Shown here: positions 6,641 through 56,972 of the stretch, in pieces
How the letters are laid out: every line of letters begins with the position of its first letter
Numbering within the stretch: the stretch's first letter is position 1
NCBI GenBank assembly: GCA_965213735.1
Contig: CBDCAB010000005.1
Span: 279,134 to 343,133, forward strand
DNA length: 64,000 nt
Direction of reading: 5' to 3'
From: Saprospiraceae bacterium
GTDB lineage: Bacteria > Bacteroidota > Bacteroidia > Chitinophagales > Saprospiraceae
Translations under genes and position numbers: made by a program
The notes under the pieces: model-generated
The model's database searches: none
What the model was told of the DNA's origin: nothing
Seen by the model: only the letters and a program-made list of their open reading frames with translations

Positions 6641-6955
6641 GGGCTTCAGCGCAACTTGGGATAGCTGTGTCATTTTGAGGAGTGCTGAAAATATTGGGCG
6701 ATTTAATCCGGCCACAAACAAGATCTAAGCACGCAGGCCACGAGTCCCGGGTAAATCCTAGCCTCTGAGCGCTTAGACATAGATCCTCCCTTTTAGGATT
6801 GATTCCAGCTGCGTAGCTGCGTCGTTCAAAGGAGCCCTGGATTTATCCGGCGACTGTACGGACAAATGTGCTCAACTTGGCCGGAATCAGCTGCACCTGT
6901 GCCTCGCATTTGCCCAAAATACCCTATCTCGCAGCTATACATATGCCCCCTGATC

Positions 6956-8401
6956 ATGTTTGAGCAGACCTTCAAAAACATCGACGACCTGCTGTACAAG
7001 GACGCCGGTGCCGACTCCGAATTGGACTACATCGGCCAGACGAGCTGGGTACTCTTTCTACGCTACCTGCACGACCTGGAGGCTGAACTCGCTGATACGG
7101 CAGCACTCGAAGGGCGCGAGCACAGCTACATCCTCGATGAGGAGTACCGCTGGAACAGCTGGGCTATGCCGCAGCGCCCCGACGGCAGCTACGACAAGAA
7201 TGAGGCGCTGGCGGGTGACGATCTGATTGATTTTGTAAAGGAGGAGCTGTGGCCATATCTAGCCGACTTCAAGGACGAAACCAGCGATACACAGACCATT
7301 GAGTATAAAATCGGGGAGATCTTCTCGGAGCTGGAGTTCAAGATTAAAAGTGGATTCATCCTGCGCGAAATTTTGGAGTACGCAGATGAGCTGCCCTTCA
7401 AGTCGAGTAAAGAGAAGCACGAGTTGAGCCATCTCTACGAGACCAAGATTAAGAATATGGGCAATGCCGGTCGCAACGGCGGCCAGTACTACACGCCCCG
7501 CCCTTTGATTCGGGCTATGATCAAGGTGATTGACCCAAAGTTGGGCGAGCGCATCTACGATGGTGCGGCGGGTAGTTGTGGATTTCTCTGTGAGGCTTTC
7601 GAATACTTACAACCACAAGTGAAGTCGACCTCCGATCTGGAGACGCTACAAGAGCGGACGCTGTACGGTAAAGAGAAGAAAAACCTTGCCTACGTGATCG
7701 GGACGATGAACATGATCCTGCACGGCATTCGTGCCCCCAACCTACGGCGCGTCAATACGCTGAGTGAGGACGTGCGTCAGGTCCAGGAGAAAAATCGCTT
7801 CGACGTGATCCTTGCCAATCCGCCCTTCGGCGGGAAGGAGCGCAAGGAAGTGCAGCAAAACTTCGACATTAAGACCGGTGAGACGGCTTTTCTTTTTATG
7901 CAGCACTTCCTGAAGATGCTGCGGACGGGTGGAAGGGCTGCTGTGGTGATTAAAAATACATTCCTATCGAATTCCGATGCTAGTGCCTTAAGGAAGTTAC
8001 TGCTCGAAAGCACGCAACTGCACACCATTCTGGATATGCCCGGCGGCACTTTTCAGGGTGCGGGTGTGAAGACAGTGGTACTTTTCTTTGAAAAGGGCGA
8101 GCCTACCCGCAAGATTTGGTACTACCAGTTTGACCCGGGCAGAAACATGGGTAAGACCAATCCGCTCAACGATGAGGATTTGCAGGATTTCTTGCGGCTT
8201 GCGCCAAAACACGAGGACTCGGACAAGAGCTGGACAATTCACGTCAACGACGTCGATCAGGACACCTATGACCTTAGCACTAAGAATCCGAATGCACCAG
8301 AACCTGCGCCCCTTCGTGCACCCGCTGAAATTCTCGCTGAGATGGAGCAGCTAGACGAAGCGACACGGAAGTTATTGGGGGAGTTAAAGGAGTTGATATG
8401 A
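6956..8401 (+). CDS. hsdM: Type I restriction-modification system, DNA methyltransferase subunit
   Basis: Motifs GQYYTPRPLI, DGAAGSCGFL (AdoMet motif I) and NPPFGG (motif IV). The stop overlaps the hsdS start (ATGA at 8398-8401). The start is chosen at the internal Met (MFEQTFKNIDDLLY). Confidence 0.93.
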   Translation: MFEQTFKNIDDLLYKDAGADSELDYIGQTSWVLFLRYLHDLEAELADTAALEGREHSYILDEEYRWNSWAMPQRPDGSYDKNEALAGDDLIDFVKEELWPYLADFKDETSDTQTIEYKIGEIFSELEFKIKSGFILREILEYADELPFKSSKEKHELSHLYETKIKNMGNAGRNGGQYYTPRPLIRAMIKVIDPKLGERIYDGAAGSCGFLCEAFEYLQPQVKSTSDLETLQERTLYGKEKKNLAYVIGTMNMILHGIRAPNLRRVNTLSEDVRQVQEKNRFDVILANPPFGGKERKEVQQNFDIKTGETAFLFMQHFLKMLRTGGRAAVVIKNTFLSNSDASALRKLLLESTQLHTILDMPGGTFQGAGVKTVVLFFEKGEPTRKIWYYQFDPGRNMGKTNPLNDEDLQDFLRLAPKHEDSDKSWTIHVNDVDQDTYDLSTKNPNAPEPAPLRAPAEILAEMEQLDEATRKLLGELKELI

Positions 8402-9621
8402 GTCGGTGGGAGGTGAAAAAGCTTGGAGACCTGTGCAATATACAACTTGGCAAAACGCCTGCGAGGCGAAATCCAAAATTTTGGGATGCTAAACACCAAT
8501 CAGATAATGTTTGGATATCAATTGCTGACATGAGGCATGGTGAGGTGCTAAGCACGTCAAAAGAGAGACTTACGAGGCTTGGCGCTGCCGAATGTAAAGT
8601 CACTCCACGTGGCACATTACTTTTAAGTTTCAAACTAACTCTAGGGCGAGTAAGTTTTGCAGGACGTAACCTATATACAAATGAAGCAATTGCATCGCTG
8701 CTAAATTTGAAGGTTGATAAGAACTACTTATTTTATTACTTTAGTCATTTTGATTGGATGCGCGCGACCGAAGGCGACCATAAGATAAAAGGCAGGACAT
8801 TAAACAAAGCTAAGTTAAAAGATTTATCTATCCCAGTCCCGCCCCTCTCTGTCCAGCGCGAGATTGTGGATCGCTTGGATGCTGCTTTTGCGTTATTGGA
8901 TAAGGCGGAGGCGAATGTTCGGCGGTGTATTGAGTTGGCGGAGGAGTTGTGGGAGGGGGTGTTGGAGAGTTTATTTGATGCAAAAGATGAGAGGTGGATT
9001 GAGACTGATCTTTCATGCTTATTGAGAAAGAAATACATAATAGATCACATGGATGGAAATCATGGTGGGAACTATCCTCGTAAAAGCGAATTCGTCTTAT
9101 CGGGAGTACCATATTTAAGTGCCAAGAATATTAAAGATGGTCATGTTGATTTCTATGAGGCGAAGTTTCTTTCATATAAAAGAGCAGCTAAACTTAGAAA
9201 AGGATTTGCAAAGAATGGAGATGTGTTATTTGCTCATAATGCTACCGTAGGCCCCGTAGCTATTCTGAACACGGATTATGAAGTGTGTGTTCTTGGGACA
9301 TCGCTTACCTACTATCGCCCTAACCTAAGTTATGTACTGCCTGAATACCTTGCAGCCTACATGCGTAGTCCGCTATTTGTGAGACAATACAATCAAGTTA
9401 TGCGTCAATCAACCAGAAACCAAGTGCCCATCACAAAACAACGCACTTTTACTTTCCTCATCCCACCGCTGCAGGTCCAGAGGAATATGCTCACAGCTTT
9501 GGTGGCATTCTATCGACGTGTTCAAATCATTAAATCAAGCTATAAGGTTCAAGCTCAAAATATATCCGTACTACGAGCTTCAATCCTGGGGCGTGTTTTT
9601 AGTCAAGAACTAATACCCTAA
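8398..9621 (+). CDS. hsdS: Type I restriction-modification system, specificity subunit
   Basis: Two AT-rich variable halves are separated by conserved helical spacers: PPLSVQREIVDRLDAAFALLDKAE centrally and PPLQVQRNML...LRASILGRVF at the C-terminus. The gene is translationally coupled to hsdM. Confidence 0.9.
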   Translation: MSRWEVKKLGDLCNIQLGKTPARRNPKFWDAKHQSDNVWISIADMRHGEVLSTSKERLTRLGAAECKVTPRGTLLLSFKLTLGRVSFAGRNLYTNEAIASLLNLKVDKNYLFYYFSHFDWMRATEGDHKIKGRTLNKAKLKDLSIPVPPLSVQREIVDRLDAAFALLDKAEANVRRCIELAEELWEGVLESLFDAKDERWIETDLSCLLRKKYIIDHMDGNHGGNYPRKSEFVLSGVPYLSAKNIKDGHVDFYEAKFLSYKRAAKLRKGFAKNGDVLFAHNATVGPVAILNTDYEVCVLGTSLTYYRPNLSYVLPEYLAAYMRSPLFVRQYNQVMRQSTRNQVPITKQRTFTFLIPPLQVQRNMLTALVAFYRRVQIIKSSYKVQAQNISVLRASILGRVFSQELIP

Positions 9622-9633
9622 ATAATCATCTGG

Positions 9634-10548
9634 ATGCGAGAACGAGCACCGAACGTTACGATGAACTCAGTGGCGCTATATTATGACAATTCACTAATAT
9701 CAAATCCCGACAATTGGTTTAGTGAATTCAATTATTTTACGAATAGCGGAGCGTTTAATCTTTTCTGTATCAAGACACCCCATGAGCTTAAACTGCAAAT
9801 AGCTATAATACAAGAGCAAGCTTTGAAGGCAGATATAGGTGTCGCGTTAATATTTGAGTTCCATGGCTCGACGAAAGGTCTTCATATTGGAGATGAAATA
9901 CTTCATTGGGATGAGCTGGCGATAGTACTGTGTCAGCTTAATCTCGCCTGTAGGAATCAAGTTTATTCACTATTCGCGACCTGTTTTGCTTCTCAACTTG
10001 GCATTGAGTTTCAAGACCCCCCGAAAATGTTTATCGTAGGAGAAGTAAGGGCACCAATTAACTTCGCAGTATTCCCTGAAGAAGAATTTTATGAATGGGA
10101 AGTCGAAGAATTCGTGCATCCGTTCATCAAACGGTGGCTATCTGGCGACAAGTCTAATATGGACGATTTGTTTACGAAAATCTTTGCAACCAGGGGCGAC
10201 AGGAATGTTTGTTGGATAAATTGCTATGGTCAATGGGATACTCTGCGTCAAAAAACTTATAAAATGTTAAATCAGAAAGTGCTTGGTAATTGGGCTATAT
10301 TGAATCAACACTTGCGTAGTCAGAAAATTAACATTCAGAAAAGAATTGGCCGATGCCCTAGAGCTAAAGATTATAGAGAACATAAATCACAAATTTTGAA
10401 AATTGAGTACTATAAGTTGCTATTATCACAGATCTTCGACCAATTTTTTATGATCGATGTATATCCAGAAAATGCTACGAAATATATTCCTGATCAAGAT
10501 TATTCTGATATCGAATTTCTGATTCTACTGCATAATAATCAATCCTAA
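9634..10548 (+). CDS. Hypothetical protein with a candidate caspase/CHAT-like His...Cys dyad
   Basis: 304-aa AT-rich ORF starting 13 nt after hsdS on the same strand. The segment LIFEFHGSTKGLHIGDEILHWDELAIVL...VYSLFATCFAS fits the strand-HG ... strand-x-C-x-S pattern of the caspase-hemoglobinase fold. The start could instead be at 9661. Confidence 0.55.
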   Translation: MRERAPNVTMNSVALYYDNSLISNPDNWFSEFNYFTNSGAFNLFCIKTPHELKLQIAIIQEQALKADIGVALIFEFHGSTKGLHIGDEILHWDELAIVLCQLNLACRNQVYSLFATCFASQLGIEFQDPPKMFIVGEVRAPINFAVFPEEEFYEWEVEEFVHPFIKRWLSGDKSNMDDLFTKIFATRGDRNVCWINCYGQWDTLRQKTYKMLNQKVLGNWAILNQHLRSQKINIQKRIGRCPRAKDYREHKSQILKIEYYKLLLSQIFDQFFMIDVYPENATKYIPDQDYSDIEFLILLHNNQS

Positions 10549-10594
10549 CGTAAGCGATAGTCCTAATGTGTGAGATTTTTGAATTTTGTAAATC

Positions 10595-11500
10595 ATGAAC
10601 AGAGAATGGTTAGAGAAAGCTATCAGGGAACTCCCTCACTTTGCGGCGCTGAGTGAGGAAGATGCTAAAGAAAATTCTAGTGATTGGTTGAAGCTTATTG
10701 AGAGTTTTAAAGCTGTTACGGATCAATACCTTGATAACAGTCGTCAACAGATGCAGGATATCTTGATGAGGAACTCAGAATTTCCACTACTTTTTAGTTT
10801 ATCCATAAGTTATCATCATTATCTATTCACGTATTTTATAGAGAAGGCAGGAAGTGACAAAGATACTGAACGTCCAATGTTCTATGCCGGGTCTCTTATG
10901 GCCTTGGCGCTTGAGCATCATGTAAGTTTGTATAACTTAATGATCAGAGGACTTGAAAGCTCTGCTCGGATACTGTTCCGAGCCTTGATTGAAGTGTATG
11001 ATTTAGTACTATGTGTGAGTCAGGATGAGGAATTCATGCAAAATTACACTAAAATTCGAATGGACCACGAAGGGATTGATCATATAATTCCAATGAAGAC
11101 GGGTAGTATTGACCGAGCAGTAAATCGAATACTTCATCGAATTGATCTTGACCCCGATAAATTCTTTACCAAATTGAGGAAAAGTGTTTACAAAGATCTC
11201 TCAGACTTTGTACATGTGTCAGCCGACACGGTTGTGATGTCTGTAATGCAAAATCATATTGACAACGAATCGAGCTCTAGGCAGTTTCGTCCGGGAGGAC
11301 TGCATACCAAAACTACTAAAACCTTTTATCTAAGCGTATTGAATTATTCTTCGCACTTCGTATCGCTTGCGTGTAGTAATTTAGTCAAATCTAAATATCT
11401 TTATTTTGACGAGGATGATATCCAATTACGGGCAGCCAGAGAAGCGTTGAACTTAGGCATTGAACTGCAGCTTAAGTGGGTGGCTAGCTTAAAGCTGTAG
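10595..11500 (+). CDS. Hypothetical, predominantly alpha-helical protein
   Basis: 301-aa AT-rich ORF, co-directional with and 46 nt downstream of the previous gene. I recognise no catalytic motif. Confidence 0.55.
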   Translation: MNREWLEKAIRELPHFAALSEEDAKENSSDWLKLIESFKAVTDQYLDNSRQQMQDILMRNSEFPLLFSLSISYHHYLFTYFIEKAGSDKDTERPMFYAGSLMALALEHHVSLYNLMIRGLESSARILFRALIEVYDLVLCVSQDEEFMQNYTKIRMDHEGIDHIIPMKTGSIDRAVNRILHRIDLDPDKFFTKLRKSVYKDLSDFVHVSADTVVMSVMQNHIDNESSSRQFRPGGLHTKTTKTFYLSVLNYSSHFVSLACSNLVKSKYLYFDEDDIQLRAAREALNLGIELQLKWVASLKL

Positions 11501-11884
11501 TGCCTCGCGTGGGATTCCAGCCTTTACTAACTAGCGACCTCGACCACATAAACAGTCTCTGCTCCAACTCCCGTAGCGTCAACTCCCCCTTTTGCGCCAG
11601 CAGATATTGCCGGTACTCCTCGTAGCCGCACGCAGTCCAGGTGCCGAGGTAAAGGTTCGTGCCACCGAGCGCGCGTACGCTGTGTCGATCCATGACTGCA
11701 TGCACGTTAGGATTGACGAAAGCCATTATCGCGCTGGCCACTGAGATGCCCACTCCAGCCAGGGCAGTGAGCGTATGTACGGCCAGATAAGGCTCCTGTA
11801 GAGAGAGTGCTAAGGAAGGGATGTATTCTACTTCTGCTTCTGTATTGCGCTCCACCTTACTCTTTGTACGTGGTGACTTCCAGG
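11484..11884 (-). pseudogene. 5'-truncated duplicate of the HhH-GPD/OGG-fold gene at 12554-13072
   Basis: Positions 11538-11884 align without gaps to 12575-12921, with about 34 mismatches in 347 nt by manual count. Homology stops at the WKSPRTKSK codons and an in-frame TAA lies just upstream, so about 50 N-terminal residues are missing. Confidence 0.7.
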
Positions 11885-12110
11885 TAGAAAAAGCTTAACG
11901 TCGGCTTTGCCTAATAGGCTAAGGGCGAAAAAGCGCTTGGTTATGGACTTAAACTGGTTAGGAGTGCTGTGTTCGCGCCACACGAAGCAGGAGTACAATT
12001 CGCGAATAACAGCAGCGAGCGTGATGTTTGATCGCTACATCGCTCTCACATGAGAATACTGTGGAGGTTCTCTGTCTAGATCGTACCTTGCAACTCCTAA
12101 AACAAAAAGT

Positions 12111-12497
12111 ATGGGACTCGATTTACTAGCTACATTCAGCGTAATCAAGAAGGAGTCCGTTGCGGACTCTGCAAGTATGATCCAACCGATGATGGTCCCC
12201 GACGAAATCATAGAGCTCGTCTATGCAAGCGTGCGTGACAAGGTATGGTTTACGAACAAGAGACTGATAGCGCTTGACGTACAAGGATTAACCGGCAAAA
12301 AGAAAGAATACCGTTCTTTTCCTTACAGTAAGATTTCCTCATTATCCGTTGAGACCTCTGGCACATTTGATTTTGACGGAGACTTTAAAATCTGGGTTAG
12401 CGGTGTTGGCGTCTTTGAAATCAAGTTTTCGAAGCGCCTTAACATCGCCGAGGTGGGAAATTATATGAGTTTAAAATTGCTTTCTCCTGAGGTATAA
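12111..12497 (+). CDS. Bacterial PH-domain (YokE-like bPH) protein
   Basis: 128 aa. The pattern VWFTNKRLIALD...EYRSFPYSKISSLSVETSGTFDFDGDFKIWVSG is typical of small bacterial pleckstrin-homology-like proteins. Confidence 0.7.
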   Translation: MGLDLLATFSVIKKESVADSASMIQPMMVPDEIIELVYASVRDKVWFTNKRLIALDVQGLTGKKKEYRSFPYSKISSLSVETSGTFDFDGDFKIWVSGVGVFEIKFSKRLNIAEVGNYMSLKLLSPEV

Positions 12498-12553
12498 GAG
12501 TGAGCCCAGGATAGTTCTCGTATTGGCTTGGAAATGAGTTAGGTAACCTTCTG

Positions 12554-13072
12554 TTACAACTTCCCCATCTCCCCCCTCGACCACATAAACAGTCCCTGCT
12601 CCAACTCCCGCAGCGTTAACTCACCCTTTTGCGCCAGCAGATATTGCCGGTACTGCTCGTAGCCGCGAGCAGTCCAGGTGCTGAGGCGCATATTCGTGCC
12701 ACCGAGGGCACGTACGCTGTGTCGATCCATGACTGCGTGCACGTCAGGATTGACGAAGGCCATGATCGCGCTGGCCACTGAGATGCCCACACCAGCAAGG
12801 GCAGTGAGCGTATGCACGGCCAGATATGGCTCTTGTAGAGAGAGTGCTAAGGAGGTAATGTGATCTACTTCTGCTTCTGTATTGCGCCCTGACTTACTCT
12901 TTGTACGCGGTGACTTCCAGGCGATGAGGGCGCGCAGGTCGTCTTTGGTGAGGTGGGTGACTTTGTGTAGGCGGTCGTTGAGAGCTAAATATTCAGCTTC
13001 GCTGCGGTAATCATACCTGGAGGCTAGCTCCTTCAATTCAGATAATCCGGTTGGGATTTGAAATAGCATCAT
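12554..13072 (-). CDS. HhH-GPD-like (8-oxoguanine glycosylase OGG-fold-like) protein
   Basis: 172 aa. The helix-hairpin-helix LTALAGVGISVASAIMAF is followed by VMDRHSVRAL, which parallels LPGVGRKTANVVL...AVDTHIFRV of endonuclease III-type glycosylases. Confidence 0.65.
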   Translation of the reverse strand: MMLFQIPTGLSELKELASRYDYRSEAEYLALNDRLHKVTHLTKDDLRALIAWKSPRTKSKSGRNTEAEVDHITSLALSLQEPYLAVHTLTALAGVGISVASAIMAFVNPDVHAVMDRHSVRALGGTNMRLSTWTARGYEQYRQYLLAQKGELTLRELEQGLFMWSRGEMGKL

Positions 13073-13590
13073 GATCGAGAGACTGGAGAATCAGCAGTAC
13101 TACCCTCTACATCCTCAAAGCTAAGCGCATTTAATAAGGGGCTGTAGTTGTTCTTAAACTCTTCAACTGATTTGAGCTCAGGGTGAAACCTTACCCAAGA
13201 AACATCATTGATCCAGGTGCTACAAAAGTTGCTTATCCAGACTGATGGTATGATGTATACGTCTGGTTGCATGGTAAGACCCGCTGCGCTTTGAAGATCA
13301 ACAAATGCAAAAAATAGATTTTCGGAGTTGACGGTTGCTGCTTTATGTCCTAAGGCAAATTCAAGATGGTGCGGAGCCTTAGCCTTGCCACGGCCTCGCG
13401 TACGCATAGCCCAATCAGCCGTCTTTACCTGAACAGAAAGCGACTTTGTACCGTCTGGATTTGAAGCAAGCAAATCAACAGTGGGTGAGCCACCTCGCGG
13501 TAAAGCGACGACAAGGCCGAGGCAACACATTTGATAGGCAACAAAGTGCTCGCCTGCTGCGCCGATTAAGTTTGCTGGTAATTTGGACAT
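13069..13590 (-). CDS. PD-(D/E)xK endonuclease-like protein (PDDEXK_5 / Hjc-like pattern)
   Basis: 173 aa. GAAGEHFVAYQMCCLGLVVALP....VDLLA.......LSVQVKT gives the E ... D ... Q-x-K arrangement. Its stop overlaps the start of the HhH gene by 4 nt. Confidence 0.65.
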   Translation of the reverse strand: MSKLPANLIGAAGEHFVAYQMCCLGLVVALPRGGSPTVDLLASNPDGTKSLSVQVKTADWAMRTRGRGKAKAPHHLEFALGHKAATVNSENLFFAFVDLQSAAGLTMQPDVYIIPSVWISNFCSTWINDVSWVRFHPELKSVEEFKNNYSPLLNALSFEDVEGSTADSPVSRS

Positions 13591-14142
13591 GGTCTTTGAG
13601 CTTGACGCATATTACGCAAATAATCCCACCTCCTCGCCAAATTCAGTCCATCGCGCAAGCGCTCCCTCGACATGGCGATGCTCAAGCATTCTACGCTTAC
13701 GGTTAGACCACTCTACCGCTTTTTAAGTGATGTCTTGCACTGATGTCGCGCCGAGTATGACGTGCAAATAATCAACAGTTGCCAGCACCTCCAACGAAAA
13801 ATTGAATTCAAAACCGATAATGAGTGCCTGGAGTCGAGGTAATCGGTCTTGCTCTTGAACATCGAGGATATTCGTCGCACCTGCCCCATAAGTTCGATAT
13901 ACCTTACGCGTATCGCGTTACATAAGTAATAGAATAGCGGTCCTATTCCTCTATAATTGCGTTGGGCCGGTGTGCCTGTTAGGGAGCAATAGTGTGGACC
14001 TCGTGGCAGGGGTTGTGGCCGCGGGTGCTATCGGGTATTCCGATAGTGTAAAAAGTTCGCTCCCTAATATCAGGTTTGTAAAGGTTGACGGCCTCAAAGG
14101 TTTGAATGTTAAAGCTTTAGGGGAATTACATAGATCCCTTCA

Positions 14143-15270
14143 TTAGCTAATAGGTATGTTATCTGGTTTTAGCGGAACCTTTGCAAACAGCATCTCTTCT
14201 ATACTATCGTAGTGGTCTGGCTTAACGAAATTCGACGTAAGATCAGAAATCCTTCCAAGTTCGCGAGCACTTATCTGATAAACATTGCCCAAAATTAAGT
14301 CCTCAAGCTTTTTACAATGACCGTCCGACCATTCATTGTCGTTTCGTAAATTAGGATAGGAAGGAAAGAGAACGCAGTTTAATCCACGATCTTCACCAAA
14401 AGCTTGTACTGAAGAGTACTGGATTCCTACGAGTGGTGTGGCAGAGGTAGAGAAGGACATAATCTCTTTTTGCATGACTAGTTTCGCAATAGCATTAGGT
14501 ATGACATAGTACAGTTGATACCCGTAGGAGGCGTCACCCCTGTCTCCTGAATTAATGAACGTCGTATGGCAGAGAAGCCGTAAGGGTAGTGTGAGTAGCT
14601 CTCCAAGCCATATCAGTAGATCTTCCTTGCCGCTAATCTGGCGATCTAGGTCCCCATCTAACGATAAGTCCAGCAGTAACAGATCGCGGCGTGCTTTAAA
14701 TGCAGCTAAGTTACAGTAGTCAACATCGGCTTTGATCCTTTGCTTAGGTAAGAGGTATTTCACCTGGCCACATTCCTTTATAGCAGTAGCAATCGTTGTC
14801 GCCAGATAAAGTGAAGTAACTCCATCGGACGAGTAGCGGGTCTGACGAACTTTGTGTTGGAGTTGAATAGGTACGTGAAATATGGCCTTACGATCTTTGT
14901 CTTTGATAGATTTAACAGCCCCCATATCCCTTCGAATACGATAAAAGGGGCCATCTCCGCGCTTAATTTCTTGAACCAGACTGTTTCTACTCCCCGCTTT
15001 GCTCAGGGACTCAAACATGGATAGTAGCAGCATTTGAATCGCCGAGTCATTTGCAAGGCGTACGTACCCCAGTAGTTCGACGCACGCCTGTACCTGAGTG
15101 TTCAAGCTCGTCCGAATTTTGGACAATAGAACTATGTTGTCTTCATCCTCGTGTTTAGCAATTTCTTCTACCGCTGCACTCTGAAATCGCCTTACATGGC
15201 TCTCAAGCGAGCGAAAGTACTCCCGTCCAGGCTCAAAGGATAGAGGTTTGGCAAATTCAGAAAGCAGCAA
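14143..15270 (-). CDS. RES-domain protein with a long N-terminal helical extension
   Basis: 375 aa. RQTRYSSDGVTSLYLATTIATAIKE supplies the R and E motifs. GIQYSSVQAFGEDRGLNCVLFPS supplies the S motif. Both match the RES family pattern. Confidence 0.6.
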   Translation of the reverse strand: MLLSEFAKPLSFEPGREYFRSLESHVRRFQSAAVEEIAKHEDEDNIVLLSKIRTSLNTQVQACVELLGYVRLANDSAIQMLLLSMFESLSKAGSRNSLVQEIKRGDGPFYRIRRDMGAVKSIKDKDRKAIFHVPIQLQHKVRQTRYSSDGVTSLYLATTIATAIKECGQVKYLLPKQRIKADVDYCNLAAFKARRDLLLLDLSLDGDLDRQISGKEDLLIWLGELLTLPLRLLCHTTFINSGDRGDASYGYQLYYVIPNAIAKLVMQKEIMSFSTSATPLVGIQYSSVQAFGEDRGLNCVLFPSYPNLRNDNEWSDGHCKKLEDLILGNVYQISARELGRISDLTSNFVKPDHYDSIEEMLFAKVPLKPDNIPIS

Positions 15271-15299
15271 AGCAGAAAGGGATGTAGAAAATATACATG

Positions 15300-15962
15300 C
15301 TATGATTCGCCAGCAGGAGCTTGCTGTGCTTTAAGGTACAAGCAGAGCATTCTCCACCAGGCGGCATTGCTAAACACCATTAGGTCTGAGCTACTGAGTG
15401 AGTACGCGACTAGGTGCAAGTGCTCTTGCAGAATATTCATGGGGTACCCCTTATAGCTTACTTCGCTATTGAGTTCCTCTAAACTGACAAGTCGATTTAT
15501 CCACGGTTCGAGTATTAATTTCCAGCCTTCCCACCCATGCAAAAAACTTACAGCGACGTAGAATCCAAAGTGGGCGTTTAGTAATGATTCGAACGAGCGT
15601 TGCTGATCACTTAGTTCGCTTTCGACGTCGTAGCTAAAGATGTAAGCGTGGCTTACGGTGAGTTCAATACCGGAGAGAATCTTGAAAAGCTGCGTGTGCA
15701 CGCGACTAGATGATGTGCCATCACTATTTTCTGCTGGACTAACAAGTGGAGCAATCTGGCTGTCGCGCATTTCCCAATAGAAGTCATTCATCACCTGGCT
15801 TGCATTCACTAGGTAGGAGAGATTTGTGCCCGCCTCGTGTGTAGTTTGCAACAAACCGTTGCGCAATAACTGCGGTATATGGTCGGACACATAGCTATTG
15901 AGTACCGCTTCAAAGAATACCCTCCGATCTTCTCGAGTCTTTTGATCGTCTGCCGAAACCAT
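15300..15962 (-). CDS. Hypothetical protein, middle gene of the RES operon
   Basis: 220-aa ORF. It starts 3 nt after the upstream gene and ends 29 nt before the RES gene. No motif recognised. Confidence 0.5.
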   Translation of the reverse strand: MVSADDQKTREDRRVFFEAVLNSYVSDHIPQLLRNGLLQTTHEAGTNLSYLVNASQVMNDFYWEMRDSQIAPLVSPAENSDGTSSSRVHTQLFKILSGIELTVSHAYIFSYDVESELSDQQRSFESLLNAHFGFYVAVSFLHGWEGWKLILEPWINRLVSLEELNSEVSYKGYPMNILQEHLHLVAYSLSSSDLMVFSNAAWWRMLCLYLKAQQAPAGES

Positions 15963-15965
15963 TCC

Positions 15966-16298
15966 CTATGAGCGCTTCGCGCCTTTCGCTTTTGTCTCCA
16001 CGGCCCGTCTCAGCACGTTGCCTGGGTTCGCTTCCAACGAGACGCCTGTACGTAGGAGAACCCTATCGTTATCGAAATGAAGAGCCTCTTTACGAACGGT
16101 AATCTTAGCAGATTCTCGCTTCCATGCCTGACGTGTTTCAGCCTCCTCGTTTGGGTACGGCTTAGTAAGGTCAACCCGCTTATAGCTAGTTGGCGTCGGT
16201 CCTCTTGCAATGAGGCGCTCCTGCCATACGGCTGTAGTATTCTCCTTGAGTTCGTCCATGTCAGATCGTTTTCTACTGGTAGTAGAAAGCGGGCGCAA
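15966..16298 (-). CDS. Small hypothetical basic protein, first gene of the RES operon
   Basis: 110-aa ORF. An alternative start at 16259 (MDELKEN) gives 97 aa. It is tightly spaced with the next gene and rich in K/R/E. Confidence 0.4.
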   Translation of the reverse strand: MRPLSTTSRKRSDMDELKENTTAVWQERLIARGPTPTSYKRVDLTKPYPNEEAETRQAWKRESAKITVRKEALHFDNDRVLLRTGVSLEANPGNVLRRAVETKAKGAKRS

Positions 16299-16533: not shown

Positions 16534-18909
16534 TTGCGTATCTCCGTGAACGAATCCCAAACCCGCCAAGACCTAGTTACTCCAGCCCTCAGAGCAGCTG
16601 GATGGGAAACCGTGCCCGGCAGCAGAATTCGCACTGAATTTCCTGTCACTAACACGACAAAGCCTGGCGAACGCAACTACCGACAACTTTCTGCTGATTA
16701 CGTCCTCATTTATAAAAATAGGATGCTGGCCGTAGTCGAGGCAAAAGCGCGAGATACGTACTATACTAACGGGCTGGGCCAAGCCAAGGATTATGCCAAG
16801 CGTCTTCAGGTGCGCTACACCTATGCTACCAATGGTCGGCGCTTCTACGAAGTAGACATGGAGGAGGGCCAAGAAGGGGACGTTCAGTCTTTCCCCTCGC
16901 CCGATGAACTCTGGGAGCGGACGTATCCAAGTCCGACATCAGCGCAACCTTACAAGCAGGAGATCGTCGACTGGAAGACTCGGCTCTTCGAAGTTCCGTT
17001 TGAGAGCCAGGGGGGCAAGTGGCAGTTGCGCTATTATCAAACCAACGCAATCAACGCCGTGCTCGACCGCATTGCCGAGAAGCATCAGCGCGTGCTGCTT
17101 ACCCTAGCTACCGGCACCGGCAAAACCGCGATCGCCTTTCAAATTGTTTGGAAGCTTTACCAGGCAAAATGGACGCTGCGCCGCGATGCCAAACGCAGTC
17201 CACGGATTCTGTTTCTTGCCGACCGTAACATCCTTGCCGACCAAGCCTTCAACAGCTTCAGTAATGCCTTTGCCGAGGACGCCCTAGTGCGCATAAGCCC
17301 TGCTGAAATCAGTAAGAAAGGCCGCGTCCCCACTAACGGTGCCGTATTCTTTTCCATCTTCCAGACCTTCATGTCGGGGCCTGACGACAGTCCCTACTAC
17401 ACACATTATGAACCTGACTTTTTCGATTTCATTATTGTGGACGAGTGTCACCGGGGAGGCGCCAACGACGAGAGTACCTGGCGCGATATACTCGAGCATT
17501 TCAGTCCTGCGGTACAGCTAGGCCTCACCGCCACCCCCAAGCGCGACGAAAACGTCGACACCTACAAGTATTTCGGCGACCCGGTGTACACCTATGCGCT
17601 CAAGGAAGGCATCAACGACGGGTTTCTTACACCTTTCCGCGTACAGATGATCACTACGACGATGGATACCTACACGTTCTCTGCCGACGATGATGTCATT
17701 GAAGGGGATATTATCGAAGGTCGCGAGTACACCGAGTCAGAAATAAATCGCATTGTTTCCATTAAAGCTCGCGAAGAGTTTAGGGTACGTCGTTTTATGG
17801 AGCTTATAAACCAAAATCAAAAGACGCTCGTGTTCTGCGCCAACCAAGAACATGCTGCGGCCATTCGCGATCTCGTTAATCAACACAGCGATAGCCTCAA
17901 CCCCAACTACTGTTGTCGCGTCACCGCCGATGATGGCAGCAGAGGTGAGAAGCACCTGCGAGATTTTCAGGATAATGAGAAGCGAATCCCGACAATCCTT
18001 ACGACTTCGCAAAAATTAAGTACCGGAGTTGATGCTCCCGAGATCCGCAATATTGTGCTACTCCGTCCTATCAACAGTATGGTTGAGTTTAAACAAATAG
18101 TAGGTCGTGGCACTCGCCTGTATGATGGTAAGGATTACTTCACCCTATACGATTTCGTGAAAGCTCACGAGCATTTCAAAGATCCTGAATGGGATGGTGA
18201 TCCTGTCGAACCTGAACCGTCCTATCCAATTGAGCGACCGAAGGTTGGGGATGAAGGTCTCGTTAGGGATCCTGTACAAGCCTTGTGTACGGAGTGTCAG
18301 CATGAGCCCTGCCTGTGTGAGGAAGGTCCGCGTGTCATGACCCGCATTCGCCTCTCCACGCAACGTGAGCTGGCTATAGATTCTATGATTAACACTTCTT
18401 TCATGAGTGCGAGTGGTATACCGATTACTTCGAGCGAATTTATTCAGCAGCTATTTGGTGATCTACCTCAGTTTTTTAAAAGCGAGGAAGATCTGCGGCT
18501 GATTTGGAGTGATGCCAATACGCGCAAGCAGTTGCTGGAGCAGATGGCGGAAGTTGGCTACACTAACTCACAACTTGAAGAGCTACGTAAGTTGGTGCAT
18601 GGTACAGACAGCGACCTTTACGACGTGCTCAAGTACGTAGCCTACCAACGGGATATGGTTTCGCGTCGTCAGCGTGCGGCTTTCGCCAAAACCCGTTGTG
18701 CAGGTAAATACTCAACGGCGCAGAATGAGTTCTTAGACTTTATTCTGGATCAATACATTGAGGGTGGGGTAAGCGAATTAGACGGTGACAAGCTGTCAAA
18801 ACTTCTGAAACTAAAGTATAAAAGTATACCCGACGCAAAGAAGAGCTTGGGCCCAGTAGAACTGATCCGTGACACCTTCCTTGGCTTTCAGGGCGGGCTG
18901 TATGGATAA
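16534..18909 (+). CDS. hsdR: Type I restriction enzyme, R (endonuclease/translocase) subunit, EcoEI-like short form
   Basis: N-terminal NESQTRQDLVTPALRAAGW. SF2 motifs LATGTGKT, DECHRGG and QKLSTGVDAP. An EcoEI-R-type C-terminal tail is present (FLDFILDQYIEGG...). Confidence 0.93.
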   Translation: MRISVNESQTRQDLVTPALRAAGWETVPGSRIRTEFPVTNTTKPGERNYRQLSADYVLIYKNRMLAVVEAKARDTYYTNGLGQAKDYAKRLQVRYTYATNGRRFYEVDMEEGQEGDVQSFPSPDELWERTYPSPTSAQPYKQEIVDWKTRLFEVPFESQGGKWQLRYYQTNAINAVLDRIAEKHQRVLLTLATGTGKTAIAFQIVWKLYQAKWTLRRDAKRSPRILFLADRNILADQAFNSFSNAFAEDALVRISPAEISKKGRVPTNGAVFFSIFQTFMSGPDDSPYYTHYEPDFFDFIIVDECHRGGANDESTWRDILEHFSPAVQLGLTATPKRDENVDTYKYFGDPVYTYALKEGINDGFLTPFRVQMITTTMDTYTFSADDDVIEGDIIEGREYTESEINRIVSIKAREEFRVRRFMELINQNQKTLVFCANQEHAAAIRDLVNQHSDSLNPNYCCRVTADDGSRGEKHLRDFQDNEKRIPTILTTSQKLSTGVDAPEIRNIVLLRPINSMVEFKQIVGRGTRLYDGKDYFTLYDFVKAHEHFKDPEWDGDPVEPEPSYPIERPKVGDEGLVRDPVQALCTECQHEPCLCEEGPRVMTRIRLSTQRELAIDSMINTSFMSASGIPITSSEFIQQLFGDLPQFFKSEEDLRLIWSDANTRKQLLEQMAEVGYTNSQLEELRKLVHGTDSDLYDVLKYVAYQRDMVSRRQRAAFAKTRCAGKYSTAQNEFLDFILDQYIEGGVSELDGDKLSKLLKLKYKSIPDAKKSLGPVELIRDTFLGFQGGLYG

Positions 18910-19503: not shown

Positions 19504-20118
19504 CTAATTATTAATATACTTCTCGAACACCTCACTAAAGTCTTTACGGACATAGTTATCATATGCCTCGGTAAGCCAATCGTGGATGTAGGTGGTGAGC
19601 TTGGGTAAATCTTCGGCCTTGCTGGAGGCGCTGGTGCGGGCATTACCCAGGACGCTGACGGCTTGTGAGATACTTGTCTGAGCCCGCTCGTGTTTGGTCA
19701 TGTTGGAGCTGACCTCTAAAGAGATGGCGTAGAGGGCTTTGTACAGGTCTGCCAGTTGTGTAGACTGTCTTTTATCGACATCGACACTGAAAGCCATTTC
19801 TCCGATGCTGAACTTAATTTCGGCGTCCAAGTCTACTGTACCAGCCGTTTCAAGCGCTACATTACTTATGGGTGTTTTGTAAAATTCGTAGCGACGCAGG
19901 GTTCGTTTGCTAGAGATAGCGGACTCACCATCTACGTGAATCAGTGCTCGATTGGTAAAGCAGTATTCGTCCTTTTTACTTTTGATGAGAAAGTAAATTT
20001 TCTCTCCATCTTCATGGAGAACATAATCATCGGCCTCTACTTTATCGTAGTCCGCCGGTGAGACAATGCGCCCGATATCGGAGATGCCTAGGGCTTCGGC
20101 AGCGAGTTTCTTGAACAT
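19504..20118 (-). CDS. YvbH-like bacterial PH-domain protein with a helical C-terminal extension
   Basis: 204 aa. The pattern is YCFTNRALIHVDGESAISSKRTLRRYEFYKTPISNVALETAGTVDLDAEIKF followed by a helical tail. Confidence 0.7.
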   Translation of the reverse strand: MFKKLAAEALGISDIGRIVSPADYDKVEADDYVLHEDGEKIYFLIKSKKDEYCFTNRALIHVDGESAISSKRTLRRYEFYKTPISNVALETAGTVDLDAEIKFSIGEMAFSVDVDKRQSTQLADLYKALYAISLEVSSNMTKHERAQTSISQAVSVLGNARTSASSKAEDLPKLTTYIHDWLTEAYDNYVRKDFSEVFEKYINN

Positions 20119-20414: not shown

Positions 20415-21059
20415 ATGCCCATAGCAAGCTTGCTTACACCACCTTACCATATTGATCCGAAGCGTCATTATACGCTGGAGGAATGGCAGCTGCTCGAAGA
20501 GACGACGGGCGAGCAATTCGAGTATCATAAAGGTCGCTTGATCCCTGTACGGGCAATGGCCGGTGGTACTGGAGAACACGCCTTGATAGGGGCCAATGTG
20601 GTCTATTCGCTAGGCAAGATCACCCGCGAGTTGGATACAGTATCGAACGGTCAAGGTCAACTTGACTGTGGGGTATACAGCAGCGACTTACGTCTCATGC
20701 TCGAAACGGAGCAGCGCTACGTTTATCCTGATGCTGCGGTTATTTGTGGGCGACCTGTGTACGATATGAAGATCCCTACTGCCGCGCGCAACCCGCTGCT
20801 GGTGGTCGAGGTGCTTTCAAATAGGAGCGCCAGCTTTGATTCAGGCGATAAATTTGACTATTATGCTGCGCTCAATAGTCTGCGGGACTATATCCTGATA
20901 AGTCAGAATTCTCCCCGCATCGAAGTGCGTTCGCGTAGTGAACCTACCGGGACATGGACGATGACCATAACAGAAGGGCTTGACCAAGATGCTCACTTGC
21001 CAAGCCTGGGACAAGCCTTCACGCTAAAAGATGTGTATCGTTTGGTGGAGTGGAGATAA
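20415..21059 (+). CDS. Uma2 family (DUF820) endonuclease
   Basis: Motifs FEYHKGRLIP, YVYPDAAVICG, NPLLVVEVLS, DKFDYYAALNSLRDYILISQ. Confidence 0.85.
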   Translation: MPIASLLTPPYHIDPKRHYTLEEWQLLEETTGEQFEYHKGRLIPVRAMAGGTGEHALIGANVVYSLGKITRELDTVSNGQGQLDCGVYSSDLRLMLETEQRYVYPDAAVICGRPVYDMKIPTAARNPLLVVEVLSNRSASFDSGDKFDYYAALNSLRDYILISQNSPRIEVRSRSEPTGTWTMTITEGLDQDAHLPSLGQAFTLKDVYRLVEWR

Positions 21060-23646: not shown

Positions 23647-26600
23647 TTAGTTTAGAGCGAAAGCAATCTCCTTCTTGCGCTCGGAGAGATCGAATGATGC
23701 ACGTGTATTGACGCAAAAACGGTAAGTTGCTTGCGGCAAATCAATACATATGTATGGCCATGCGGGAGAACAAACCCTCCGAAAGACCATGGCCATAGAA
23801 TTACATGGAGTTGCCTTGCGATCATACACTTCTAAGTAGGCACTTCCCGAACCGCTCATGTACCAGCCGCTAGCAGGTAAATATCCTCCAGCCAATTGAG
23901 CATCGACATCGAGTTCGCCATTTAGCGTTATAATGCTAAGGAGCGTCAGCGAAGCATCCACTTTAGCTTTTACTTTCGCATCAACAGTAAAGTCGGTACG
24001 TGCAAATGATTTAAAGAAGTTGGCTGTACCCACGGCATTAGCATCGTATGAAAATGCCACTGCATTAAAACCACCAATAGGTACCGTTATACTTCCCTGC
24101 TGGCGATTGGCGGTAAGTGCAGCACCCACGTAGACTCCATGCAGCAAGTTATCATAAGGACCATCTAGCGCACTTGCCGCTATATTCCGCCACAGCCGTT
24201 TCACCGAACTAGGCGTGGATGTGCCATCGCGATCCATATTGATTCCGACCGCTGCGAAGATATTACCAGTGGCAATCGTGCCAATGGCAGTGTACGCATT
24301 AACGCCAAGAAATACCCCTCCCTTGGGCCGAGATCCGGAAGGTGCCTGAGCGAATAGAGTACCTTGGATATCGAAAGCAGCAGCACCGTTTAGCAAAGCC
24401 TTACGTGATTCAACATCGACGGTGGCTAAGAGACGACAGAAATCAAGCTTAGCGGTGACGCTACCCCAATCCTCGTTTTTTAGCGAAAGCCCGGCGGTAC
24501 CCGTCACAATAGGAACGCCTCCACATTTAGATACATCAAATAGGACTTCGAGCGTCACGTTTTTGGCGTATACAACGGCCTTGGGAGTACCCTGAGGACC
24601 GAGTTCGCCGAGCGCCATCACTTTATACTTTTGAGTGGCGGTATTGAAATCAAACCCGCCGCCAATCGTGTGCCATATCACCGGTCCTGTGGTGATACCT
24701 GCCGATACAAGAATACTCGCGCCTAATTCTATACCCACTAAGCCTGCTGCTGGATTGTTGTGGTGATAAAACTTAAAGGAGGCTGCAAGCTTCTTGGTCA
24801 TCGTCTCCAACTCACCACTCCCCTCCATACCCCATTTGGTGGCCCCAAACGACATTTTCGCAGAAGCGGAAAGATGAAAGGCTGGACTATTAACTTCTAA
24901 AAAGATTTCGTTGACTTGCACCTGAAGTCCACTACCTCCGCCGCCAGCGAGAATTAGGCTACCGCCAACTTTAGAGTTTAGATCTTTAATTGGAAATTCT
25001 ACGGTGCCGCCAAGGCCAATAGCCCAAGCCATTTTAGTTGACGTGAGAAGCTTATCTGATGAGGCCCCACGCGCAACTAAATCTTGCAACTCTTTCACAG
25101 TAACTCGACCACGCATTACAGCATCATCAACCAGTGCCTTATCGGTAGGACTTGGCGTTTTACCCGCCCGCTCAGCCCTATCAATACGATCTTGAGCATA
25201 GGCGAGCATCTCTGGCGAACTACCGACGAACGTCCGCTTCGTTGGGTCGAAATATTTGGCAGTTTTTGAGAGCTCCATGTAGCTGGCCATATCGCTCATG
25301 CTCATCCCCACGCCGACGTTGACGAGTAGTTTTGAAATTACGAGCGTTACTGCTTTGAGATCGATACGTTTGTCAGGCGATGCAGCCATAAACACACTCC
25401 AGTCGGCGCTGCGAAAGATGAATCGATCAATGTTGATTGGAAATACTTGTCCTGCGACACCGGATCCACCACTCGCCGCGGTTCGCGTCCCCGACGCATT
25501 TGAAGTAGTCGTGGCTGCTCCGCCTGCTGCATAGTGCAGCACACCGGCTCCATCAAAGCTCATGGACAGTGGACTAGTTTCTAGCTTAATCTTAACTGGT
25601 CGCGTCGTTGTGGCGCGCAGGCTGTTCATGGCCAGCCCGAGAGTCGGAAAGAGCAATTCGCCGATGAGGGTTGGCCCATTGGTGCCGAGGACAAAAGACA
25701 GCTCCTTTATCTGGAGATTTTCTTCTGGCTTAACGTTGCCTGAGCTATCCGCTTTAAGAATAACAAGCCCGCCTGCTCCCAAACCTACATTAGGAGAACC
25801 TAAGCCTCGCACGATGATGCGGTCGAGTTGCATCATCCATTTGCCGATCTTGGCACGCACAGGTGTAGAGGCATCTACTTCGGCGGCCACCTTACTTACT
25901 ACCCCATCACCTTTTACATCAAAAGCAGACAGGCGCACCAAGCCTTTATTCGGCCAAGGAATGGCGTTGGCAACATTTGGAAGTTCTAAAAATCCAGCGA
26001 AGTGTATCCCCGAACTATCTACGCTGGCTTCTTCTTTATCAATATGTAAGTTGAGCAGACCACCCGCTAATCCACCTTTAACATGAGTCACATTAGTCGG
26101 TGCGACAAAGGGGAGTTTAGGAGCATTAGGATCAACTGGCTTCTTCTTCTTCGCCTTCTTCAGCTTAATGCTTGTAAAGTTAGGCGCCGCTTGCGCAAAA
26201 ACTAAGGAAAACGTCGCATTGCGCGACATATAATCCATAGCCTTACCTGGCGAGGCAAAGACCCCCTGAAATTCTTGATTTCCAAGGAGCATGGCTGTAC
26301 CAACAACATTAGTCACTGCCGCAGTATTTATATTGCTCGCTGCGTAGTCGAATTTATCATTAGAAACATACGCTGACGGAAGCGAGCTCATTGGCAGACC
26401 GCCAATCGTGCCGAAGCGCTTTAAATTGAGCAGCAAAGTATTGCCGCCAATTACTGCAACTCGCTTCTCGGCAGGTGTCGAGCCATTCATGGGGCGCAAC
26501 TCGATAATTGGCGAGCCTACCACATCGATAGGAGCAAAGCCAAACGCATCGGTTGGCAAGGTGGCTACATCAAGTGCGATAGGTCCGAGAGGAATGGCCG

Positions 26601-49828: not shown

Positions 49829-50540
49829 GTAGATACTCCGTACTGGGCGGTTCCCTTAACCTGCTATGCGATATTCGCTCGCATACGGTTCAGGCCGATT
49901 CGCCTAAACCACACGTTATCCATCGACATGTGGGCTGGAGGGCTGCTCCCTTTTGTGCCCACCCTGGACGTGAAACCGTCCTACCCAACTCTGTCCGCTC
50001 CCCGGATATGCCAGCTCGCTTCGATTTAGGGCCACCCACCACGCTTTCAGTCGCGCCAAACGGCAACTCCGTCTGCTGTGGCTGTGCCGAGTGCGGCACC
50101 GGGCGTTTTCCTGGACCCTTGTTCGCGTTGTCCTCAGTGTGGAGCACCGGCTGCTCCTTGAGATGAAGGTTCGGCCCTTTGCTTTAGGCAATCAATACCT
50201 CGCTACTAAGGCCTCGGCTGAACTCTCCCTCCCTCTCGGCTTATGCCGCAACACGGCGACTTTACGGGAGAACTCCCACGGTAAGTTCTATATCCTCCTC
50301 AATATCCAGCGTGATTTACCACCCGCCCGTTACGGCTGACTTTGTGGTTTCGCGGTTCACGGCCCGCTTACCCAGACGGTAGTGCTTACATCAAGTTTCT
50401 GTTCGTCTGGATGTAAATTTTTTCACAGTGCCTTCAGAATCCGCTTCACAGGCTACACCCTTGTGCTTCACTAACGATTCCTCGTCGACTAGGCTCGTTC
50501 GGGACTCTAACCCTAAAGACATAGAACATGCATGGCATAC
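49829..50540 (-). mobile_element. ORF-less group II intron-like RNA inserted just after a terminator hairpin (class C-like placement)
   Basis: All features are read on the minus strand.
- The element starts GUAUGCCAUG 7 nt after the adhesin terminator stem.
- UAGGGUUAGAGUCCCGAAC (50515-50497) sits at intron nt 26-44. It closely matches my recollection of domain I of the Oceanobacillus iheyensis IIC intron (UAGGGUGAGAGUCCCGAAC at the same offset).
- GCACAAGGGUGU and GGAUUCUGAAGG are also similar to that intron.
- 5' UAUGCCA (50539-50533) pairs with UGGCAUA (50013-50007), followed by CCGGGGAG, which would close domain I.
- A domain V-like hairpin GAACCGUAUGCGA...UCGCAUA...GGUU lies at 49891-49858.
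- No ORF longer than 91 aa is present on either strand.
- The 3' boundary is approximate. Confidence 0.6.
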
Positions 50541-56848: not shown

Positions 56849-56972
56849 GTTTTTGAAGTGTTGTTCGCAAAGCCACCCGCAACAGCGTATATTCACGAGC
56901 TAAATCTCTGTGCGTATCCGCCGCTGCATGAGCCTTCGATCAGCAATGCACCACAAACCTTGCCACTACTTT

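Follow-up and report, generated by a model that had tools for sequence, protein, structure and literature searches.

Can two small overlapping genes, set inside a type I restriction-modification (R-M) locus, act as one defence system in which one protein recognises a modified base and the other cuts the DNA? The question is raised by a 64,000-nucleotide stretch of DNA, referred to here as the window, from a Saprospiraceae bacterium (GenBank assembly GCA_965213735.1, contig CBDCAB010000005.1, positions 279,134 to 343,133 of the forward strand). In the window, gene A is predicted to encode a small nuclease of the PD-(D/E)xK fold, and gene B a divergent helix-hairpin-helix (HhH) protein of the HhH-GPD type. 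The preferred answer, to which a probability of about 0.4 is given, is that A and B form a split, two-gene module resembling the END and Dag systems. Such a module would sense modified DNA and then cleave it, with B as its constant element and the nuclease as an exchangeable one. The two genes and their junction are located as follows.

13069-13590, minus strand: gene A, an open reading frame (ORF) of 173 amino acids (aa); predicted small PD-(D/E)xK-fold nuclease with residues E14, D39, Q54-x-K56 and D98
12554-13072, minus strand: gene B, an ORF of 172 aa; predicted divergent HhH-GPD protein, Ogg2-like and related to PF21790
13069-13072, minus strand: ATGA stop/start overlap of A and B, read from the sequence

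The initial annotation had described an overlapping pair at 12554-13590, and both the ORFs and the sequence confirm it. At the junction the minus strand reads CGA-TCA-TGA-TGC, where the TGA stop of A overlaps the first ATG of B by 4 nucleotides (nt). A second ATG directly follows the first in gene B, and it is this second one that matches the starts of the homologues (M-x-F-x-L-P). The ATGA overlap suggests that translation of A and B is coupled. Because both ORFs have real database relatives, and because the residues of their motifs are the conserved ones, they are not chance reading frames. A scan for promoters and terminators around the pair gave no more matches than shuffled sequence did, although the sigma-70 model may not suit this host.

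The motifs previously quoted for both proteins are all present. In A these are GAAGEHFV (residues 10-17), VDLLAS (38-43) and VQVKT (53-57). Its 27 relatives in the database reach E-values as low as 7e-61. Searches of Pfam, NCBIfam, PADLOC and the PDB sequences returned no match to A, and its sole library match is PHROG 29029 (phrog_29029; E 8e-16), which has no assigned function. With the sequence searches empty, A could be placed in a family only by comparison of structures.

An AlphaFold model of A, made from an alignment of 22 sequences, has a predicted local distance difference test score (pLDDT) of 89.6 and a predicted template modelling score (pTM) of 0.83, and contains an alpha-beta-beta-beta-alpha-beta core. 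The best solved structure in a Foldseek search is the homing endonuclease I-Ssp6803I (2OST; E 1e-4, template modelling (TM) score 0.67, target-normalised). Further matches include the SPARDA effector nuclease domain, EcoRV and Hjc, as well as phage proteins labelled 'PD(D/E)XK endonuclease domain' and DUF4365 proteins. On the evidence of the model, A is predicted with confidence to be a PD-(D/E)xK nuclease.

Conservation in A was counted over 59 relatives, some of them distant and drawn from genomes and prophages. D39 is found in all 59, Q54, V55 and G13 in 58 each, K56 in 57 and D98 in 54. The Glu of helix 1 (E14) is present in 46 of the 59 and is thus dispensable in a fifth of the family. 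A Gln (Q54) stands where the usual middle acidic residue sits, and D39 and K56 lie on the expected strands 2 and 3 of the model. The E...D...QxK endonuclease layout that had been noticed in A therefore agrees with the model, the Foldseek matches and the conservation counts. Small PD-(D/E)xK nucleases such as I-Ssp6803I, Hjc and SPARDA share with A the core, the Glu in helix 1, the Asp that opens strand 2 and the x-K on strand 3. A differs from them in its QxK, an additional conserved R-G-R-G loop and the additional D98, and in matching no Pfam or PDB family by sequence.

In B, the motifs are LAGVGISVASAIMAF (residues 92-106) and VMDRHSVRAL (114-123). Nine close relatives are known, 44 were found by profile search, and 4,960 representative clusters (50% identity) are reached at E<=1e-3. 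B scores 17 bits (E 0.005) against Pfam PF21790 (OGG-like), under the 27-bit gathering threshold, and its 13 bits against Pfam HHH are also below the cut-off. It fails the NCBIfam equivalog model for Ogg2 (NF002305/PRK01229), with 12.8 bits against a cut-off of 183. PF21790 is the only family that recurs, being matched by 14 of 37 B-family members (E<=0.01), and P0048 passes its threshold with 29.9 bits. Since B itself is under the threshold while relatives match and one passes, B belongs to an outlying sister group of PF21790.

The AlphaFold model of B (37 sequences, pLDDT 94.9, pTM 0.91) is all-helical. In a Foldseek search of the PDB the top 50 matches are all HhH-GPD glycosylases, with probabilities up to 1.0, E-values of 3e-3 and modest TM scores (0.42-0.49). 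MjOgg and SsOgg come first, followed by hOGG1, MutY and 3-methyladenine glycosylase. The B family profile, searched against PDB sequences, also finds Ogg2-type proteins (E 5e-7 to 9e-5), and the alignment places 'GLGMKEAS...IIDRH' of Ogg2 over 'GVGISVAS...VMDRH' of B. Judged by its modelled fold, B is a divergent member of the HhH-GPD proteins, and archaeal Ogg2 is its nearest counterpart. An HhH followed by a catalytic Asp, as in EndoIII and OGG enzymes, had been proposed for B; the model, the HhH-GPD profile match and the alignment of the Asp with that of Ogg2 all bear this out.

Among 192 members of the B family, the catalytic Asp (D116), which aligns with the catalytic Asp of Ogg2, is kept in 191; it follows the HhH at the expected distance of about 18-20 residues. 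The HhH is equally constant: G94 occurs in 191, and G94, A100 and S101 each occur in at least 189. At position 98, the site of the Schiff-base Lys, there is a Pro in 154 members, a Ser in 22 (as in B), an Ala in 11 and a Lys in one. The expectation that the HhH protein would retain the conserved Asp or Lys was thus right for the Asp and wrong for the Lys, which is lost. By its lack of this Lys, B is predicted not to be a bifunctional lyase of the EndoIII/OGG type. A protein that keeps the Asp and lacks the Lys would either be monofunctional, removing bases and leaving abasic sites behind, or only read bases and have no catalytic role.

The family also has motifs of its own, namely an invariant W52-K53-[ST]-x-R56 and a near-invariant R155...[DE]158...L161-[WF]162. 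The archaeal Ogg2 structures (MjOgg 3FHF/3KNT, SsOgg 3FHG, 9O00-9O03) are the best structural and profile matches of B, and both the HhH (GxG...AS) and the Asp align. B differs from Ogg2 in that the Lys of GMKEAS aligns to Ser98, in being about 35 residues shorter, in carrying the W-K-[ST]-x-R motif and in its failure against the Ogg2 model.

For a nuclease paired with a glycosylase-like protein, no described defence system had been known at first. A precedent does exist in the END fusions, one of which has a PD-DExK nuclease (PMC12191111). END nucleases join a nuclease to a domain of the EndoIII/Ogg kind that is inactivated and matches PF21790 (Yee et al. 2025 preprint, PMC12191111). The nuclease part can be a PLD domain, a NucS-like PD-DExK domain (END-Mag) or a McrB GTPase (PMC12191111). 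The other domain senses hypermodified bases, and END proteins restrict hypermodified phages (PMC12191111). For END-Mag, the best templates are the archaeal Ogg structures 3FHG and 3FHF/3KNT (PMC12191111).

The likeness to A and B extends to several levels. In both cases a nuclease is combined with an EndoIII/Ogg-like HhH domain related to PF21790, and 3FHG and 3FHF are top matches for B as well. The nuclease is N-terminal and the reader C-terminal in END, and the gene order is the same here, with the nuclease upstream. Both are found in defence-island settings. The END nuclease is modular (PLD, PD-DExK, McrB); on the side of B there are A, a protein of about 335 aa described below, and fusions to HNH, GIY-YIG and DUF429 domains. 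There are also differences. A and B are two polypeptides encoded by overlapping genes instead of one, and B keeps the catalytic Asp, whereas the END domain is described as lacking the catalytic residues of EndoIII (PMC12191111). Moreover, no homology can be demonstrated between A and the nuclease domains of NucS-like or PLD type; the likeness is judged from their published description.

A second precedent is provided by Dag proteins. These are stand-alone, extremely divergent glycosylases of the HhH superfamily that protect against phages with modifications of the 7-deazaguanine type (Getz et al. 2025, bioRxiv 10.1101/2025.10.29.685425). Their genes lie in AT-rich, mobile or defence-associated regions, and Dag1 is reported to be bifunctional, with K118, D184 and W188 essential (bioRxiv 10.1101/2025.10.29.685425). 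Going by this description, B resembles Dag in being a small, divergent HhH protein of AT-rich mobile or defence regions, and most members of its family stand alone too. Unlike Dag1, B has no Lys at the HhH position, and in the window it is coupled to a nuclease gene. Brig1 and the restriction glycosylases of the R.PabI family share the same defence logic, in which bases in foreign DNA are recognised or excised to give abasic sites and strand breaks. Their folds differ from that of B, Brig1 being like uracil-DNA glycosylase and R.PabI/R.CcoLI having the HALF-PIPE fold (PMC10273834; PMC12191111). R.CcoLI, considered as an HhH-type restriction glycosylase for comparison, was dropped on account of that fold.

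The surroundings of A and B are those of a type I R-M system, as had been claimed: HsdM, HsdS and HsdR flank the pair. Their genes are located as follows.

6866-8401, plus strand: hsdM, type I R-M (Pfam N6_Mtase, E 4e-59)
8398-9621, plus strand: hsdS, type I R-M (NCBIfam type I specificity subunit, E 7e-20)
16534-18909, plus strand: hsdR, EcoAI/FtnUII family (NCBIfam NF046051, E 1.5e-234, 781 bits against a 550-bit cut-off)

The system is chromosomal, with gyrB at the start of the window. An insert of about 6.9 kb, which includes A and B, separates hsdS from hsdR. The guanine-cytosine (GC) content falls from about 53% to 37-49% across hsdS and the cargo region (window 8000-16000), and this low GC content is consistent with horizontally acquired cargo DNA.

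If A and B do act together, they would be co-transcribed as a cassette in the variable, horizontally acquired cargo region of the R-M locus. B would flip out and recognise a non-canonical base, for example a hypermodified one, in invading DNA. It might excise this base via D116 or act as a pure sensor. A, whose D...QxK site is intact, would then cut at or near the flagged or abasic site. B would be the constant element of such a system, and its nuclease partner could be exchanged. What is shown is the structure of the genes, the folds, the conserved residues and the genomic setting; that the two proteins act jointly, on which substrate and in defence, is inferred. Base sensing followed by cleavage of modified phage DNA had already been suggested for the pair; it remains plausible as a mechanism, but the pair is not broadly conserved.

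How far A and B travel together can be seen from the neighbourhoods of B. Eleven distinct loci with close B homologues were compared, the window included.

Window: B partner A; upstream module, RES-domain pair
L001: B partner A, with a 5-nt spacer; upstream, DarT and DarG
L002: B partner A, interrupted in frame by a TGA at the conserved codon R63; upstream, DarT and DarG
L025: two remnants, one of A and a truncated B, the other of a frameshifted A and an intact B, on a contig of 2x coverage; upstream, an HTH-M78 gene
L024: B partner a protein of about 335 aa on the opposite strand; upstream, transposases
L026: B partner a protein of about 335 aa on the opposite strand; upstream, DarT and DarG
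L043: B partner a protein of about 335 aa on the opposite strand; upstream, DarT and DarG
L045: B partner a protein of about 335 aa on the opposite strand; upstream, HEC-01 A/B
L046: B partner a protein of about 335 aa on the opposite strand; upstream not covered by the short contig
L042: B partner neither A nor the protein of about 335 aa; upstream, Septu PtuA/PtuB
L023: contig too short to show the neighbours of B

These loci support the preferred reading in several ways. The genes overlap by ATGA, and a nuclease followed by a reader is the order in which the domains of END are arranged. L001, L002 and L025 retain the A-B block while the upstream module varies, with DarTG in L001 and L002 and the RES-domain pair in the window. 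Evidence for an exchangeable partner is provided by the protein of about 335 aa with a PD-(D/E)xK-like motif that flanks B in five loci without A, and by fusions of the B domain to domains of nuclease type (HNH, GIY-YIG and DUF429). A role in defence is supported by the B homologues that lie directly downstream of DarTG (four loci), Septu PtuA/B and HEC-01, by the low GC content, and by the near-absence of the B family from viral contigs. In each of the long, closely related loci examined, the neighbours of B are transposases or genes with a known or candidate role in defence or as toxins.

The protein of about 335 aa flanks B at the following positions.

L024, 7125-7940, minus strand
L026, 4258-5277, minus strand
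L043, 1740-2744, minus strand
L045, 2038-3084, minus strand
L046, 1688-2698, minus strand
L025, 2745-3107, a remnant

Members of this family start with MPHYFQRYSQRENWVTN and carry an 'IIDG...AIETK' motif that is PD-(D/E)xK-like. Going by this motif, the protein may be an alternative nuclease partner of B. Profile-profile comparison revealed no relation between this family and A, and a search against PDB sequences found no match.

Fusions occur in a minority of the best 150 B representatives. They include HNH (P0214), DUF6884 with GIY-YIG (P0161), DUF429 (P0081, P0202), EcsC (P0099, P0110) and unassigned extensions. No 'Rosetta stone' fusion of A to B was present among the A relatives or these 150 representatives.

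A number of observations weigh against the idea that A and B form one module. Homologues of A were found at 20 genome loci, and B is present in only two of these: in a metagenome-assembled genome (MAG) of Lewinellaceae (L001, identical to L003) and in one of Saprospiraceae (L002, identical to L004). The other 18 loci (17 distinct) contain no B-like gene by tblastn and hidden Markov model (HMM) search. Where their downstream neighbours were checked with Pfam, these were housekeeping or unrelated genes (MsrA, isocitrate dehydrogenase, a radical-SAM enzyme, hydrolases). Nor is there a B at 14 viral or prophage loci with distant relatives of A, which brings the distinct A loci without B to 31 (17 genome and 14 viral). 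From the side of B, A adjoins it in 4 of the 11 loci, all of them in related islands of Saprospiria type.

In two of these four A has decayed while B persists. One is L002 (7480-7995; OZ244050.1, Saprospiraceae MAG), where the A homologue has the TGA and no gene is called, while DarT, DarG and B are intact; the other is the frameshift in L025, seen at 2x coverage. The approximately 5,000 clusters of the B family consist mostly of stand-alone proteins of about 175 aa (about 170-190 aa among the best 150 representatives). The A profile matches none of the extra domains fused to B, and no A is present at the distant B loci L047-L051. As for the protein of about 335 aa, its identification as a nuclease depends on the motif and a single library match, to PDDEXK_4, which is sub-threshold (E 0.016).

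Finally, the window and L001 are orthologous, and the adjacency of A and B in both is therefore not independent and may be merely inherited. Their gene order is equal except that DarTG is exchanged for the RES-domain pair. Identity between the two is 74% for HsdR, 77% for HsdM, 63% for A, 58% for B and 46% for the DUF5677 protein. A and B co-occur within a single island lineage only; neither family needs the other, and most occurrences of each lack the other. Absence of the pair from all other genomes, which would have weakened the two-gene idea, was not observed, and the idea is not refuted, but the pair was found only in related islands of Saprospiria type. Coupling of A and B, as seen in this one lineage, is plausible as a split form of a recently described defence principle.

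The best of the alternatives is that B acts alone, as an antiviral glycosylase like Dag or a plain conserved island gene, and that A is an independent nuclease with no shared mechanism. We consider this a possible explanation, though on the unlikely side. It has a precedent in the stand-alone HhH glycosylases, also divergent and in AT-rich regions, that defend by themselves (bioRxiv 10.1101/2025.10.29.685425). It would also account for a family that is mostly stand-alone and keeps the Asp, for the persistence of B where A is absent or nonsense-mutated, and for the occurrence of A relatives by themselves in unrelated contexts and in phages. Less easily explained are the 4-nt overlap (a 5-nt spacer in L001), which implies co-expression, and the retention of the A-B block while the upstream neighbours are swapped. 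In addition, the HhH Lys on which Dag1 and Ogg2 rely is missing from B; a protein that has no lyase activity would profit from a separate nuclease.

The choice between these two readings bears on how the pair is to be valued. If A and B act together, they would be the first split, two-gene form of defence by an END-type nuclease and an Ogg-like reader. A reader that keeps the catalytic Asp would then be an intermediate between END, with its inactivated sensor, and the active Dag, and could show a stepwise recruitment of repair glycosylases into immunity. If B acts alone, it would simply add a divergent member to a class recognised not long ago. The family is large (about 5,000 clusters) and unannotated, and assigning a function to it would annotate many genes and could yield readers of modified bases.

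Besides A and B, the insert between hsdS and hsdR contains the following features.

9634-10548, plus strand: 304-aa cargo protein, recurring in related islands (BLASTP)
10595-11500, plus strand: 301-aa DUF5677-like cargo protein (Pfam DUF5677 below cut-off), recurring in related islands
11487-11894, minus strand: B', a partial second copy of B (HMM match, E 4e-46)
12111-12497, plus strand: bPH_1 (bacterial PH domain) gene between B and B' (Pfam PF08000, E 7e-35)
14143-15270, minus strand: 375-aa RES-domain protein upstream of A (Pfam RES, 26.6 bits against a 23.2 cut-off; phrog_7835)
15300-15962, minus strand: 220-aa protein directly upstream of the RES gene (ORF)
15966-16298, minus strand: 110-aa ORF

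The 304-aa and 301-aa cargo genes are matched in BLASTP by L026_314, L043_310, L045_311 and L001_269. The 220-aa protein has no match in Pfam, PADLOC, NCBIfam or PHROGs. By synteny, the RES-domain and 220-aa proteins fill the slot that is held by DarT and DarG in the orthologous locus L001. This pair may use nicotinamide adenine dinucleotide (NAD+) and act in defence or as a toxin and antitoxin. No DarT or Macro domain was detected by Pfam or PADLOC in the six cargo proteins found between hsdS and hsdR besides A and B.

A second alternative follows from this slot. B with A, or B with the protein of about 335 aa, could be an accessory of the adjacent toxin modules of ADP-ribosyltransferase type (DarTG or the RES pair). 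With ADP-ribosylated bases as the target that B recognises or excises, cleavage by the nuclease would either turn a reversible DNA mark into irreversible damage or serve the repair of self-DNA. In L001, L002, L026 and L043 the genes just upstream of B, on its own strand, are those of DarT and DarG, and the window has in that slot a RES-domain protein, a type of domain that uses NAD+. However, other modules precede B elsewhere: Septu in L042, HEC-01 in L045, transposases in L024 and an HTH-M78 gene in L025. This points to a shared hot spot, not to a functional tie. All of these loci belong to one island lineage, and no link between DarTG and a glycosylase is described in the literature searched. 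This explanation is improbable.

An elaboration of it may be called 'write, read, cleave'. An NAD+-using toxin would ADP-ribosylate the invading DNA, B would flip or excise the marked base, and the nuclease would cut. The writer would be DarT in the relatives and the RES-domain protein in the window, and the mark would be made by the host instead of the phage. It is put forward as a long shot.

Still less probable is a selfish or addiction element, in which A would be a free-standing nuclease, either a toxin or of the homing type, with B as the inhibitor or antitoxin that matches it. That the closest solved structure to A is a homing endonuclease speaks for it, as do the small size and overlap of the genes and the scatter of A relatives over unrelated loci and prophages. 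However, B has an enzyme-like fold, a full HhH-GPD with its invariant Asp, which is not what an antitoxin looks like, and A relatives elsewhere have no B-like partner. The survival of B without A is also contrary to what a toxin that depends on its antitoxin would lead one to expect. Least probable of all is housekeeping repair or recombination by an 8-oxoguanine (Ogg2) glycosylase and an Hjc-like resolvase, for although Ogg2 gives the best PDB matches to B and Hjc is among those of A, B falls short of the Ogg2 model and the PF21790 cut-off and has no catalytic Lys, and the genes sit in a low-GC insert of an R-M locus beside toxin and defence modules, with a patchy distribution and pseudogenised copies.

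A further oddity, which may be connected with the 'write, read, cleave' idea, is the partial copy B'. A direct repeat of 300 nt (11538-11837 against 12575-12874) is 90% identical. B' spans residues ~51-166 of B in direct orientation; it lacks the N-terminus and begins exactly at the invariant WKSPR motif, with 90% identity to B in both nucleotides and amino acids. The truncated copy is also found in L001 (10040-10609) and L045 (4704-5174), in the same layout of B, opposite-strand cargo and B', where the cargo is an unrelated 288-aa gene. Within each genome B and B' are about 90% identical, while the lineages of the window and L001 differ by about 40%. Together, the likeness within genomes and the divergence between lineages indicate either repeated insertion of a cassette into B or ongoing gene conversion. 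B' could be a silent cassette from which the base-recognition region of B is swapped by gene conversion.

Among 2.9 million viral contigs the close profile of B found no locus and the broad profile one; this near-absence fits a gene on the host side. A metagenome scan for close relatives of B gave only one locus. A search of plasmids gave only distant haloarchaeal B-like genes, beside a HEAT-repeat protein or small unknown ORFs and with no A nearby. In a Halobellus plasmid locus (L050, 4905-7427) the B-type domain directly precedes the HEAT-repeat protein. Another distant homologue of B, P0044, lies at L047 (1974-3079) and L048 (108-1243) in a group of three small genes whose arrangement is conserved (79-85 aa, B, 101-105 aa). 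AIPR and TerB-like genes are close to the trio in L047.

Just past hsdR, the window encodes another bPH_1 protein that also has a YvbH_ext domain (19504-20118, minus strand), followed by a putative restriction endonuclease of the Uma2 family (20415-21059, plus strand). Given these genes, the defence-type region may extend beyond those of the R-M system. Elsewhere in the window there are three very large ORFs, of 2047 aa (23647-29790, minus strand), 1953 aa (43681-49542, plus strand) and 2099 aa (50597-56896, minus strand). A match to a group II intron (D1-D4-3; Rfam, 71.5 bits, E 3e-12) is located at 50288-50455 on the minus strand, just downstream of the 2099-aa ORF.

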